DNA of 41,518 nucleotides from a virus (IMGVR_UViG_2802429248_000002), one strand, 5' to 3'; shown: positions 32,530 through 35,989, counted from the stretch's first letter. A program made the numbers and translations. Notes: generated by a model not told the origin, from the sequence alone.

Positions 32530-32590
32530 CTTTACCCTCGCTTATCCACATAACTTATTGATTACATTGATAACTAAAAAGATCGTCGAT

Positions 32591-32938
32591 TCAGAACTCT
32601 TCGATGTTCCAGCCACCACCTGCTTTCTTTGGCTTAACCGTTACCCCGATGATTCGGAACGGATACTGATCTGCGGCGACTTTGGTTTTCACTCTGGCGT
32701 CATCGGTCCAGAATCCCCCTTTCACTTCGTGCAGTTCCATCTCGCCGGTGGCGAGCATCACAGCAAAATCTGGCGTATAGAACGTGTTGTCAGCTAACCG
32801 CAGCTTGATACCCTCAAATCGATACCAGACGATTTCTCCTGCACGTTTACGCAGCTCAAGGTGCTGGCAATACGCAGATTCTGTTTTGTTCATCTGGCCT
32901 GTTTTGAGTCGACCAAGAGCCTGCATCTGTTTTCTCAT
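32591..32938 (-). CDS. VRR-NUC-like (PD-(D/E)xK) nuclease domain protein
   Basis: 115 aa; motif ..YTPDFAVMLATGEMELHEVKGG.. fits the D...E.K catalytic arrangement of VRR-NUC domains (memory). Operator palindrome 4 nt upstream of the ATG. Confidence 0.55.
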   Translation of the reverse strand: MRKQMQALGRLKTGQMNKTESAYCQHLELRKRAGEIVWYRFEGIKLRLADNTFYTPDFAVMLATGEMELHEVKGGFWTDDARVKTKVAADQYPFRIIGVTVKPKKAGGGWNIEEF

Positions 32939-32941
32939 GAT

Positions 32942-33018
32942 TTACCCCTTAGGTAATTAAAAACCACATAAGACACGAAATCAATAGATTTTAGAATATT
33001 TTATTACCTCTAAGGTAA
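32942..33018. promoter_or_regulatory. Pair of operator palindromes (TTACCCCTTAGGTAA 32942-32956; TTACCTCTAAGGTAA 33004-33018) flanking a putative minus-strand promoter
   Basis: Minus-strand TTGATT-17 bp-TTTAAT lies between the two palindromes; the proximal palindrome overlaps the RBS of the VRR-NUC gene. Confidence 0.5.
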
Positions 33019-33055
33019 TTATCGAGACGTAAAAAAATGCGCTATCGCGCTGGTA

Positions 33056-33856
33056 TTACTTGATAAATCCTGACGCCTTTCCCCGCCTGTATTCCTCCAT
33101 CAGCCACTGCGCCGGTGTTATTCCCCCAAGGGTGGCGGCGTTAGGCATGCACCCGAAACTTCGCCCTGGTGGATGGTAAACGTCTCTCCCTGTGTCCGGA
33201 GGCGTACTCATGGGTTCTGGCTTTGCCTGTATGCTGATCACCGGATCGGGTATCTGCTGTCCGGAAGCCACCTTTTTCGCCCAATCATCGAGCAGCCTGC
33301 GCGCGTGTTTCTCAACCTCAATCTCGCTAAGCTGGCGCTGATACATTGCACGGCGGGTATCACATACGACCCAGTACATAACCTGATGTCGCCACGGGAA
33401 TCTTTCGGGACCACCAGGATATAAACTTTTTTCCTTGCTGTACCGGTGAAACTCCGCCATCACATCGTCAATGGTGACGCCAAGAACCATCTTGCTGTCT
33501 TTACACCACTTGATGAATTGCCCTGGCGACGGCCAGAACGGAGAATCACTGGCGCGGGCGTGGCGCATACCAGCAGAAACCTGTTCACGGGTTCGGATCC
33601 CCCCTTCGGCAAACGCAGCAATCCACTGCTGTTTTGCAGCAACTTCCTGCTCTGGCGTCTTCAGGTTGGTTACCACTGCCGCCGGAAACAGTTGTTTCAG
33701 CTGTTTGAAAAGGGCATCAACAAGCCTCTCTGCTGACATGTTCACTACGTTGTCATTGTTGGTGTACTGATGCTCATAACCTGACATGCGAGAAAGGGCT
33801 TCTCCGTCACGGTTTTGTATTGCGGTAAAAACGTTGTTCACAAGAAATCCTCCCAC
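33056..33856 (-). CDS. Replication protein P-like (DnaB helicase loader)
   Basis: 266 aa; segment WIAAFAEGGIRTREQVSAGMRHARASDSPFWPSPGQFIKWCKD aligns with the lambda P core (..WVLAFRENGITTMEQVNAGMRVARRQNRPFLPSPGQFVAWCRE..) from memory. Confidence 0.7.
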   Translation of the reverse strand: MGGFLVNNVFTAIQNRDGEALSRMSGYEHQYTNNDNVVNMSAERLVDALFKQLKQLFPAAVVTNLKTPEQEVAAKQQWIAAFAEGGIRTREQVSAGMRHARASDSPFWPSPGQFIKWCKDSKMVLGVTIDDVMAEFHRYSKEKSLYPGGPERFPWRHQVMYWVVCDTRRAMYQRQLSEIEVEKHARRLLDDWAKKVASGQQIPDPVISIQAKPEPMSTPPDTGRDVYHPPGRSFGCMPNAATLGGITPAQWLMEEYRRGKASGFIK

Positions 33857-34653
33857 GCTTCAGGGCTGTTCCAGTGCGGAACGTTGTTATCAGGTAATGT
33901 TGATTGCTTCTGTCTGCTAATCTGCAGCCGCCTTGCCAGCTTCTGCTCCCACTGTGCCTGATGGTATGCCTTACCCTCAGCCATCCAGTAAATTCTGAAC
34001 TCTGCAAGTTCCTGTGCCGTTGGCAGACTGTCCAGGTAGATCCCCTGCAATGAGCTTTTCCGAAGAAAGTCATCTGATGGCTGCCATTGTTCATGCATGA
34101 CAAATTTGCCTAATTGCCCTGGCCCACCAGGAGGAACAAAGTTATTCATCACGGCGTTGTTTGCGCCGGGGTCATGATGCACAGAATCCCCGTTTTTTGT
34201 CCTGCTCTCCCTCTCTTGGTTAAATGACTGGTTATATGACTGGTTCTGGATCCCGTTTTTGGGATCATTCAACATCCCGTTTTTGGAATCATTCAACATA
34301 CCGTTTTTGGGTATATTCCCGTTTTCGGTAACATTACCGTTTTCGGGTTCATTGCCCCCCTCTCGGTTGCCTTTAATGTTCCCGTTTTTGGTTATATTAA
34401 GAGAGAAAACCCGCACTCTTTTTGTCGCTCCCTTTCTCTCCCCGGTATCTGAAATAAGCCCCATTTTCATGAGCGATATAAGTCCGGCCTGCACGGTTTT
34501 TTTATTCAGGCAAGTGTCTTTAACGAGGCGTTCTATGCTGGGGTAGCAGAGGTTATATTCATCGGCTCTGTCAGCCATCGAGAGCAGTATGAGCTTTAAT
34601 GACGAGCTACCTGGATCTGTCTCCCAGGCCCAATCTGTTGCATGTCTGCTCAT
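33838..34653 (-). CDS. Replication initiator with N-terminal HTH and DnaT-like C-terminal domain (O-equivalent)
   Basis: 271 aa; C-terminus LGKFVMHEQWQPSDDFL...ELAEFRIYWMAEGKAYHQAQWEQKLARRLQISRQ resembles E. coli DnaT (memory). Central Asn/Gly-rich repeats are encoded by iteron-like DNA repeats. Confidence 0.65.
   Translation of the reverse strand: MSRHATDWAWETDPGSSSLKLILLSMADRADEYNLCYPSIERLVKDTCLNKKTVQAGLISLMKMGLISDTGERKGATKRVRVFSLNITKNGNIKGNREGGNEPENGNVTENGNIPKNGMLNDSKNGMLNDPKNGIQNQSYNQSFNQERESRTKNGDSVHHDPGANNAVMNNFVPPGGPGQLGKFVMHEQWQPSDDFLRKSSLQGIYLDSLPTAQELAEFRIYWMAEGKAYHQAQWEQKLARRLQISRQKQSTLPDNNVPHWNSPEAWEDFL
34251..34392. repeat. Iteron-like array: six copies of (C/A)CCGTTTT(T/C)GG inside the replication initiator gene (putative ori)
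   Basis: Copies begin near 34251, 34276, 34300, 34317, 34336 and 34381, spacing 17-45 bp; also a direct repeat ATGACTGGTT x2 at about 34223-34246. Confidence 0.5.
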
Positions 34654-34668
34654 GATTAATCTCCGCTA

Positions 34669-34869
34669 TCAGCTTGAATGTTGTGGGGAGGAATTAATCA
34701 TGATCTGCTTAATCTCTGCCCTGATACGACGGTTTGATTCCATGGTGCACTCAACACAGTGTCCGTTGTAAACCCAGCGTTCACTGTCATGTCCGTGCTT
34801 ACATATTTTTCCGGTGTAGTAGCGTTTAAGTCCGCGCTTTGCGGCATCAATACGTGTAATGATTTCCAT
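34669..34869 (-). CDS. Small zinc-finger-like protein (hypothetical early regulator)
   Basis: Start taken at MEIITR (ATG 34869); 66 aa; CKHGH...CVEC motif. Confidence 0.35.
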   Translation of the reverse strand: MEIITRIDAAKRGLKRYYTGKICKHGHDSERWVYNGHCVECTMESNRRIRAEIKQIMINSSPQHSS

Positions 34870-34949
34870 GGTAAGCCATGTTATTAGTATTGGGATTACG
34901 GTTATTTTGTGCTGACACAAAAAAAAGATCAACCACATTTGGTTTTTTA

Positions 34950-34964
34950 TTACCTTTGAGGTAC
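34950..34964. promoter_or_regulatory. Operator palindrome TTACCTTTGAGGTAC upstream of the early-left genes
   Basis: Located between the Cro-like gene stop (35020) and the small zinc-finger gene start (34869). Confidence 0.4.
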
Positions 34965-35019
34965 GAATAGATATGAAAAGACCGCCGGATGGCGGTCTAC
35001 AGAGGGTTGTGGCTGGATA

Positions 35020-35250
35020 TCATGAGTAGAAGAAGTATGCCAGTTCTGCTTTTGAGCGCAGCCATTGTCTTGATTTACAGGCTTTAAAAAGCCCATCCAT
35101 CAATACCTTACCTGGCATTTTGCGCTTACCTGTTAAGTGAGTCTGGATATAGTGACTCGTCGTTCCGGCTTCCTGTGCGAAGGCTTCACGCTCATCCGGA
35201 GTAAGTGCAAGCCAGTGCTTTTTGAAATCGAAATGTCCGTTATCGCTCAT
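35020..35250 (-). CDS. Cro-like HTH DNA-binding protein (first gene of the leftward early operon)
   Basis: 76 aa; HTH-like segment FAQEAGTTSHYIQTHLTGKR; divergent from the repressor-like gene across an operator-rich 150-bp region. Confidence 0.45.
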   Translation of the reverse strand: MSDNGHFDFKKHWLALTPDEREAFAQEAGTTSHYIQTHLTGKRKMPGKVLMDGLFKACKSRQWLRSKAELAYFFYS

Positions 35251-35286
35251 AGCTATTGCCTGATATTTATTTCAGATAATAAATAT

Positions 35287-35349
35287 TCACCTATAAGGTA
35301 ACAAAAATCAAGGATAGTTACCCATGAGGTGCATTTACCTGTTGGGTAA
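35287..35349. promoter_or_regulatory. Immunity-region operator cluster: three sites (TCACCTATAAGGTAA 35287-35301; TTACCCATGAGGTGC 35318-35332; TTACCTGTTGGGTAA 35335-35349)
   Basis: Clustered palindromes in the divergent Cro-like/repressor intergenic region, analogous in layout to lambdoid tripartite operators. Confidence 0.55.
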
Positions 35350-35404
35350 TATTGCTTTAAATTGAATCATCTTCTGATTCAGATATGAGGCGATTTTCCA
35401 GAAA

Positions 35405-35989
35405 ATGAAAAGTATCCAGGACGTCCGCAGGCAAAATCTCAACGACTTGATCGACCGTGAATTCAATGGTGTTCAGACGCGGATGGCTGAAAAACTTGGA
35501 ACTCAGGCAAATCTGGTAAACCGCTGGGCTCTTGGCAAGAAGGTTATCGGCGACCAGGTTGCGCGAAAAATTGAAGCTGCCGCCAATAAACCCCGTAACT
35601 GGCTTGATATCGATCGCTCGCTTTCTCAGGAAGGTTTTCAGCCTGTCGGCCCGAGTGATATAGGTCAGCTGGCTGCTCACAACCTGGAACGCTGGATGAG
35701 CGAAAGCCGCGACCTTTCAACGCAGGGAAAACTACACCGCGCATCCGGCGTCGCCCAGGTGACAATCAGCCGCCTGTTAAACAATGAGGTCAGCGTTTCC
35801 ATTTCCACCCTGGAGAATGTTGCATCCGCATTCGGGCGTCATGGCTATGAATTACTGATTCACCCGCACGACCCTGCGACTATCAACTATGACCGCTCGC
35901 GCTACGCATTGTTACCCGAAACCGAGAAAGCAAAGATCGAAAGTTACATTGAATTTGTCATCAACCAGAACGAAAAAAACAAACAATAA
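35405..35989 (+). CDS. XRE-family repressor-like protein with two HTH motifs and no S24 autocleavage domain (putative immunity repressor)
   Basis: 194 aa; HTH 1 GVQTRMAEKLGTQANLVNRW, HTH 2 ASGVAQVTISRLLNNEVSVS; no GDSM/Ser-Lys peptidase signature; flanked by operator clusters on both sides; terminator immediately downstream. Confidence 0.55.
   Translation: MKSIQDVRRQNLNDLIDREFNGVQTRMAEKLGTQANLVNRWALGKKVIGDQVARKIEAAANKPRNWLDIDRSLSQEGFQPVGPSDIGQLAAHNLERWMSESRDLSTQGKLHRASGVAQVTISRLLNNEVSVSISTLENVASAFGRHGYELLIHPHDPATINYDRSRYALLPETEKAKIESYIEFVINQNEKNKQ

Follow-up and report, generated by a model that had tools for sequence, protein, structure and literature searches.

The origin of phage lambda carries four annotated ori iterons that lie inside the initiator gene O and are read in several frames, and a preliminary description of the locus studied here had invoked this arrangement, which the lambda annotation bears out. 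The origin, the initiator and the N-terminal half of P together form the specificity unit established for lambda. In iteron plasmids of the RepA/pi/TrfA type, iterons stand beside 13-mer repeats in the unwinding element. The Stx phages 933W and P27 have six iterons in O and longer O proteins, and both extra iterons are needed for plasmid replication, the origins of Stx phages having been tested by EMSA, footprinting and plasmid replication (PMC7466680). Because extra iterons make the protein longer, phages that differ naturally in iteron number also differ in the linker. DopC/DopE of the Cellvibrionales and Oceanospirillales are domesticated chromosomal genes in which no iteron-like sequences were found, and GC skew places the origin of these chromosomes elsewhere (PMC5509034). 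Brezellec et al. described DopC and O as homologous at the N terminus only, with HTH_36 among the labels of their HHpred figure (PMC5509034). In the open literature, we found no description of an origin for phiV10/epsilon15-type phages, of DnaT-type phage initiators with iterons, or of the motifs reported below.

The DNA analyzed here, referred to as the window, is a stretch of 41,518 nucleotides from the virus IMGVR_UViG_2802429248_000002. Between 33000 and 35300 it is 98-99% identical to the Escherichia phages phiv142-3, PAS61, and phiV10 (Uetakevirus, epsilon15-like), and we identify the window as a phiV10-like Uetakevirus genome. The genes and signals around the putative origin are as follows:

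33838..34653, minus strand: replication initiator gene, 271 aa, holding the putative origin elements (ORF and Pfam; phiV10p43 'replication initiation protein')
34393..34653, minus strand: N-terminal winged-helix domain of the initiator, aa 1-87 (HTH_36 match at aa 18-67), the predicted iteron binder
33898..34104, minus strand: DnaT-type C-terminal domain of the initiator, aa 184-252 (Pfam and PDB), predicted to contact the P-like loader and/or single-stranded DNA
33056..33856, minus strand: lambda-P-family helicase loader gene, 266 aa (Phage_lambda_P), with a GTG start at 33856 or 33841
35276..35304, minus strand: sigma-70-like promoter, a consensus match only (9/12 positions), which would drive the operon through the origin

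The initiator matches HTH_36 (PF13730) at aa 18-67 with 40.9 bits against a cut-off of 25 (E 1.8e-10) and the DnaT C-terminal DNA-binding domain (PF17948) at aa 184-252 with 57.5 bits against a cut-off of 25 (E 1.1e-15), and its residues 180-265 match solved structures of E. coli DnaT (PDB 9zbt, 6aep, and 4ou6; E 7e-21 to 4.5e-20). The ORF directly downstream matches Phage_lambda_P (PF06992; E 1.4e-56), which agrees with the adjacent P-like helicase loader of the preliminary description, and the loader GTG at 33841 overlaps the initiator stop as GTGA. In the phiV10 record the initiator ORF is named 'replication initiation protein' and the next gene 'putative replication protein p', with no origin annotated. 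The lambda-type initiation module proposed earlier is supported by these assignments, whereas its placement on a 'leftward operon' merely reflects the orientation of the window. Divergent promoters at ~35.3 kb are consensus matches of a kind not commoner than in shuffled sequence. The combination of HTH_36 and a DnaT C-terminal motif beside a lambda-P-like gene gives 33056-34653 the two-gene layout of DopC/DopE.

Membership of the initiator in the lambda O family was examined and found no support. Phage_rep_O (PF04492) gave no match, BLASTP of the N-terminal domain (N-domain) against lambda O was not significant, and hhalign to the lambda O N-terminus returned a probability of 4%; among the homologues tried, only that of PPompW showed Phage_rep_O in Pfam, at an E-value of 0.26. 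Pfam likewise found no Rep_3 match in the initiator. RepR of pIGRK was set aside as a counterpart, as it belongs to a different plasmid system.

Across the whole 41.5-kb window, exact plus-strand matches to CCGTTTTYGG occur at 34253, 34277, 34301, 34319, 34337, and 34382, with start-to-start spacings of 24, 24, 18, 18, and 45 nt. These six copies, all within 34253-34391, compare with an expectation of 0.25, and six were not attained in any of 100 dinucleotide shuffles; the six copies within ~140 bp of the preliminary description are thus recovered as exact matches. When one mismatch was allowed, the only extra local copy was at 34190-34199 and two isolated matches elsewhere were within chance, and this motif scan found no second iteron cluster in the window. 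Tandem Repeats Finder, the check proposed with the preliminary description, placed arrays in the window only at 34217-34353. The minus-strand ORF 33838-34653 reads all six copies in a single frame, as (K/E)NG within an N/G-rich linker, so that, together with the PF17948 match, the earlier view of repeats encoding the Asn/Gly-rich linker of a DnaT-like initiator stands. The iterons (34250-34394) fall within residues 87-135 of the 271-aa initiator, and each is a 16-bp dyad composed of a 5-bp arm, a 6-bp A-tract centre, and a complementary 5-bp arm:

34250..34265: iteron 1, the last in the direction of transcription; coding strand ATCCC-AAAAAC-GGGAT, a perfect dyad that abuts the 12-mer element
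34274..34289: iteron 2; ATTCC-AAAAAC-GGGAT, arms complementary at 4/5 positions, part of a 24-bp unit
34298..34313: iteron 3; coding strand ATACC-CAAAAA-CGGTAT, in register with the others, core CCAAAAACGG
34316..34331: iteron 4; TTACC-GAAAAC-GGGAA, part of an 18-bp unit
34334..34349: iteron 5; AACCC-GAAAAC-GGTAA
34379..34394: iteron 6, the first in the direction of transcription; TAACC-AAAAAC-GGGAA, directly after the winged-helix domain
34187..34202: degenerate seventh copy; CCCGTTTTTTGT on the plus strand, in a purine-rich stretch
34212..34247: 12-mer element; coding strand AGAACCAGTCAT / ATAACCAGTCAT plus a degenerate third copy TTAACCAAGAGA, the candidate unwinding/helicase-entry site

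The seventh copy at 34187-34202 was rejected as a site: it is not conserved in close relatives, where the peptide is TKNG, TKSG, TKTG, or TKTR, and it probably has no function. The preliminary description mentions neither the dyads nor the 12-mer tandem at 34217-34245, nor that close relatives fail to conserve the seventh copy. As all copies in the window share one frame and their spacings are multiples of three, the window alone cannot separate a repeated peptide from a repeated DNA site.

Relatives were gathered by their shared N-domain, which yielded more than 30 homologous loci from many Proteobacteria. Five were phages or prophages (PPompW, Vibrio H20, Edwardsiella GF-2, Acinetobacter AP22, and Ab105-2phi), with 35-50% full-length identity by tblastn and 46-58% over the N-domain alone. 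A one-genome-per-species collection contributed 27 loci, 25 of them with a usable relative, from Superficieibacter, Marinobacterium, Vibrio, Wohlfahrtiimonas, Providencia, Proteus, Pseudoalteromonas, Acinetobacter, Desulfovibrio, Sphingobium, Zoogloeaceae, and Methylotenera, and a few further viral contigs were added. In every intact relative, at N-domain identities of 35-87%, the array lies right behind the winged helix. The N-domain family as a whole comprises 3,704 cluster representatives at E <= 1e-3, and among 120 full-length representatives, 99 carry at least two repeat footprints.

This comparison also defined the element that follows the array. In the window, a 12-bp tandem, AACCAGTCATWT, occupies 34217-34245 directly after iteron 1, and across the family the element has the consensus CA-GAAYC-NN-YCA in 2-4 copies every 12-13 nt. 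In nearly all of 27 loci, also where the iteron arms differ, the GAAYCNNYCA repeat begins 3 nt past the last iteron, and when 25 distinct sequences were aligned without gaps on GAAYC, the positions of the element proved as informative as the iteron core. The 16-mer that ends 3 nt upstream of the GAAYC element is a dyad with at least 4/5 complementary arm positions in 20/27 loci. The 12/13-mer is read in two frames, giving QNQS/NLS in 21 loci and EPx/ESx in 6, and in Vibrio H20 its spacing of 13 then 12 nt means that copies within one element are read in different frames. We considered whether the 12-mers are half-iterons and ruled this out, since GAAYC is kept where the iteron arms are GTCGG or GTGCC. 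We read the element as a putative core for duplex opening or helicase entry, and the family-wide 12/13-mer may be the one part of this arrangement that is new.

Other signals expected of an origin were searched for around the array. Beside the last iteron, a nearest-neighbour stability profile showed modest instability but no strongly AT-rich tract. GC content in the 12-mer region is 37-41% versus 48.8% in the whole window; the least stable 40-bp windows of the repeat region (34212-34394) reach only about the 6th percentile and, for the 12-mer region, about percentiles 8 to 14, and the 200-bp region stands at the 12th percentile of the profile. An A/T-rich tail follows the 12-mers in some relatives only and is not general. 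A DnaA-dependent, oriC-type origin was rejected, as no cluster of DnaA boxes lies at the array: with up to one mismatch there are 12 matches against 9.8 expected, and the nearest TTATCCACA lies at 32542. No Rfam family above threshold marks an RNA element in 32900-35500, where the only match was a sub-threshold isrG (17.5 bits against a gathering score of 100) outside the array. A promoter or terminator inside the array was also discounted, as the sole 'terminator-like' match, 34260-34279, is a by-product of the dyads and site counts are not above those of shuffles. Cumulative GC skew has its minimum at 34-36 kb, but transcription changes direction there, at the putative divergent promoters of ~35.3 kb, so this is not independent evidence.

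Plasmid records in PLSDB bear on whether such loci replicate autonomously. Two circular 'plasmid' records of 41,027 bp are phiV10-like genomes, and a circular record of 8,461 bp consists of approximately only a repressor, cro, ydaT, a PPompW-type initiator with iterons, and P; no replicon type is listed for any of the three. The smaller circle suggests a self-sufficient replicon resembling lambda-dv, although the circular records could instead be assembly products or replicating phage DNA.

Besides serving as an origin, an array bound by the initiator could be a control element, acting in autoregulation, titration, handcuffing, or as a transcription roadblock, with opening taking place elsewhere. 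In iteron plasmids and in Vibrio chromosome II, iterons act in copy control as well as in initiation, and such a role would fit the lack of a strongly AT-rich tract adjacent to the array and the location of the least stable 40-bp windows of the whole window at other sites, for example 32983 and 35262. Against this, the window contains neither another iteron cluster nor an enrichment of DnaA boxes, and the 12/13-mer is locked 3 nt from the last iteron family-wide, as in the core of an origin. Natural module exchange argues in the same direction. In phage TL-2011b, the stretch from ~33575 (mid-P) to ~34925 is replaced, with flanks 97% identical on both sides; the swapped segment comprises the N-terminal half of P, the initiator, and a small ORF, and brings in an unrelated initiator without these repeats. 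The exchanged cassette thus holds the initiator and the N-terminal half of P, the unit of origin specificity in lambda. On this evidence we consider a purely regulatory array improbable.

The relatives also allowed the repeats to be assessed as peptide or as DNA. Of 107 copies of the core motif, 89 are in frame 1, 11 in frame 2, and 7 in frame 0; more than one frame is used in 10/26 loci and all three in 4/26, and in Vibrio salinus three neighbouring copies encode SPKNG, IPKTE, and SQKRT. Synonymous positions were examined in (K/E)NG units picked by peptide pattern alone. In these units K is AAA in 23/23 cases, E is GAA in 13/13, N is AAC in 34/36, and the preceding codon ends in CC in 35/36, whereas the same codons make up 50-58% outside the linker of the same ORFs (p 1e-6 to 2e-4). 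The iteron arms of the relatives covary, both 5-bp arms changing together, such that the dominant site per locus has complementary arms: ATCCC/GGGAT, GTACC/GGTAC, CCCCC/GGGGG, GACCC/GGGTC, GTCGG/CCGAC, or GTGCC/GGCAC. Perfect 5-6-5 dyads with an A/T-rich centre occur at 29/9,483 positions in the linker zone versus 47/83,316 elsewhere in the loci, a 5.4-fold enrichment (Fisher p 1e-10). Taken together, the use of three frames, the fixed synonymous sites, the covariation of the dyad arms, and their covariation with the protein described below argue for selection on DNA, and these comparisons indicate that the array is conserved as DNA rather than as peptide.

The repeat number was found to be highly variable among close relatives. 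A set of 79 near-identical viral contigs yielded 50 distinct linkers, each with at least five and at most nine iterons; the 24-bp unit is present in 1-5 copies and the 18-bp unit in 1-3, while the iteron core is almost invariant. Protein clusters from E. coli, 279-311 aa in length, mirror this variation. As the units vary freely in number, the linker evidently tolerates both insertions and deletions, which fits a flexible tether whose sequence is dictated by the DNA sites it encodes.

Such polymorphism would also be expected if the repeats had simply arisen by in-frame slippage within a disordered, low-complexity N/G-rich linker and did nothing as DNA, as would the single frame and the spacings of 18, 24, and 45 nt in the window and the dominance of frame 1 family-wide (89/107 copies). 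This reading is already contradicted by the use of three frames and the fixed synonymous codons: in the other two frames the motif encodes unrelated peptides such as TQKR and PKTE, and slippage would not account for dyad-symmetric sites whose arms undergo compensatory changes and follow the recognition helix. DopC, which has the same architecture without an origin role, is reported to be free of iterons (PMC5509034). DopC/DopE differ from the window phage in being chromosomal, iteron-free by that report, and not markers of an origin, and the absence from DopC of both iterons and an origin role fits repeats that serve the origin and not the protein. We therefore regard slippage as a very unlikely source of the array, and selection on DNA makes a lambda-style replication origin the very probable alternative.

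The predicted DNA-binding part of the initiator varies together with its putative sites. A recognition helix of the form (N/D)xKT with the wing DTGERKG pairs with xxxCC/GGxxx arms, HRDT or YRET with a different wing pairs with GTCGG/CCGAC arms, and SNRHT pairs with GTGCC/GGCAC arms; only three lineages leave the CC/GG class, and the covariation of helix and arms thus rests on few independent events. The C-terminal part is exchangeable. The N-domain and array are joined to at least three kinds of C-domain: DnaT-like in the window phage and PPompW, a region resembling the lambda O C-terminus in GF-2 (KWGTSEDL versus KWGTAEDL), and other C-termini in Acinetobacter phages, where they lie beside DnaB-type helicase genes. 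In the reciprocal arrangement, seen in Enterobacter phage Tyrion, the DnaT domain, P gene, and flanks are retained with ~80% DNA identity, but the N-terminal domain is unrelated and these repeats are missing, with a 7-bp triplet repeat in the equivalent linker instead. Although the joining of N-domain and array to different C-domains and the nearby cassette swaps might suggest a recombination or module-junction hotspot, or a site for another phage or host protein, with no role in replication, this can scarcely be credited, as the TL-2011b swap boundaries lie ~640 bp and ~530 bp outside the array and not within it, and covariation of the dyads with the recognition helix of the initiator itself would be left unexplained.

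Compared with lambda, the locus shares the position of the iterons inside the initiator ORF, in a linker between an N-terminal DNA-binding part and a C-terminal part that contacts the loader (putative roles in the window phage), a spacing of ~20-24 bp, a P-family loader gene directly downstream, a specificity cassette made of the initiator and the N-terminal half of P, and, in the family of the window phage as in lambda, a motif read in several frames. The sites themselves are dyads with an A-tract centre and outer arms ATCCC...GGGAT, as seen when lambda ITN2, ATCCCCTAAAACGAGGGAT, is set against the best copy here, ATCCCAAAAACGGGAT; lambda iterons read ATCCCTCAAAACGAGGGA-like and are ~3 bp longer than those of the window phage. 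This resemblance of arms and A-tract is an observation, by which ancestry is not tested. The two systems differ in their proteins, with Phage_rep_O and the lambda O C-domain in the one and HTH_36 and a DnaT C-domain in the other, and in their sites, with four of 18-19 bp in lambda and six of 16 bp here (5-9 in close relatives) in mixed 18- and 24-bp units. The conserved 12/13-mer GAAYCNNYCA repeat here stands where lambda has a 40-bp AT-rich tract.

The locus resembles 933W and P27 in having more than four iterons, the extras lengthening the initiator protein, whereas those phages encode true lambda-O proteins and have lambda-type iterons and an AT-rich tract. It resembles iteron plasmids in placing an array of initiator sites beside short direct repeats that serve, or here would serve, for opening and helicase loading, but the iterons of the plasmids are mostly intergenic direct repeats bound by Rep_3-type WH1-WH2 monomers, while here they are dyads inside an ORF.

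Taken together, our analysis suggests with good confidence that the array is the lambda-type origin of this phage and supports theta-type replication, with dimers of the initiator on the iterons and P-DnaB brought in via the DnaT-like domain. We infer that the initiator binds the iterons, that the duplex unwinds at the 12-mers, that P is contacted, and that the array has origin activity at all. In the proposed mechanism, initiator dimers would bind the six 16-bp dyad iterons in the linker-coding part of their own gene through the N-terminal winged helix, and the resulting nucleoprotein complex would be anchored by the last, perfect iteron (34250-34265), in fixed register 3 nt from the 12/13-mer at 34212-34247. 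The duplex would then be opened, or the helicase delivered, at this repeat, with the DnaT-type C-terminal domain recruiting the lambda-P-like loader together with the host DnaB it carries and perhaps also holding single-stranded DNA. Transcription of the early operon would pass through the origin site.

A broader interpretation, which we put forward tentatively and hold to be somewhat less probable than its negation, is that HTH_36, dyad iterons, and the phase-locked GAAYCNNYCA constitute a portable 'origin cassette' not described before, which thousands of initiator clusters from proteobacterial phages and prophages would have in common, in combination with at least three helicase-recruiting C-domains, and in which the 12/13-mer would be a new sequence-specific core for opening or helicase entry that replaces the AT-rich tract. 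Within such a cassette, some conserved part of the initiator might recognize the 12/13-mer in single-stranded form.

A lambda-style arrangement is in itself expected, and is documented here for a large and little-studied family of initiators. For the biology of the phages concerned, it provides a probable origin for the phiV10/epsilon15-type phages (Uetakevirus), which are in use for O157 detection and engineering and whose records carry no origin annotation. For the very large HTH_36 initiator family, it offers a rule for finding origins, namely dyad iterons behind the winged helix followed by GAAYC 12-mers, and the natural covariation of recognition helix and iteron arms would constitute a ready-made specificity code. 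The 12/13-mer may reveal how such origins open without an AT-rich tract, and the array as a whole would represent a clean case of a DNA signal setting the sequence of a protein linker.

The initiator of Enterobacter phage Tyrion shares its DnaT C-terminal domain with that of the window and has a different N-terminal domain, and its linker holds tandem TCCCTGA repeats which, because their period is 7 bp, are read in three frames; these may be initiator sites belonging to that module. In phage TL-2011b, unrelated sequence stands in place of the N-terminal half of the helicase loader gene P, the whole initiator and a small upstream ORF, while the C-terminal half of P lies outside the exchanged cassette and is retained. 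The features concerned, together with two others at the array, are as follows.

L002 (Enterobacter phage Tyrion), 3207-3234: three tandem copies of TCCCTGA, period 7 bp
Window ~33575-34925: cassette exchanged relative to L116 (phage TL-2011b), flanks 97% identical
Window 34669-34938, minus strand: small ORF immediately preceding the initiator gene, listed at 89 aa
Window 34259-34546, plus strand: 95-aa F/P-rich ORF, antisense to the iteron array
Window 34187-34217, coding strand: purine-rich run AAGAGAGGGAGAGCAGGACAAAAAACGGGGA, directly after the 12-mers

The small ORF swapped along with the initiator in TL-2011b has a 66-aa counterpart in phiV10 (phiV10p42). It had no match in Pfam, and its Cys/His pairs (CKHGH...CVEC) are suggestive of a zinc ribbon. 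The antisense ORF, whose equivalent stretch in phage YDC107_2 is annotated as a 'putative membrane protein', is probably a spurious call produced by the repeats.

The purine-rich run has a strand asymmetry that the AT-rich tract of lambda appears to share; unlike that tract, the run is not AT-rich. Cumulative GC skew across the whole window declines from position 1 to ~35 kb and then rises, with a turning point that coincides with the array and also with the divergent early promoters at ~35.3 kb.

In L103, from a Granulosicoccaceae MAG, the initiator ORF is 149 aa long and stops within the 12-mer element, the DNA repeat continuing beyond the stop codon. L108 and L113, from a Symbiopectobacterium MAG, contain truncated winged-helix remnants that lack iterons and are followed by unrelated ~26-bp repeats (AGATAGGTAACTGCTGTTTAATTACT).

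Circular records were found at two scales.

L117 (NZ_CP148379.1): 8,461-bp circular record
L119 (NZ_CP079771.1): 41,027-bp circular record

Whole phiV10-like genomes have been deposited as circular plasmids in two records, and neither these nor the small circle carries a listed plasmid replicon type. L117, the small circular 'plasmid', contains essentially nothing but repressor, cro, ydaT, a PPompW-type initiator (as in the prophage relative PPompW) with iterons, and P, a content in which it resembles lambda-dv.
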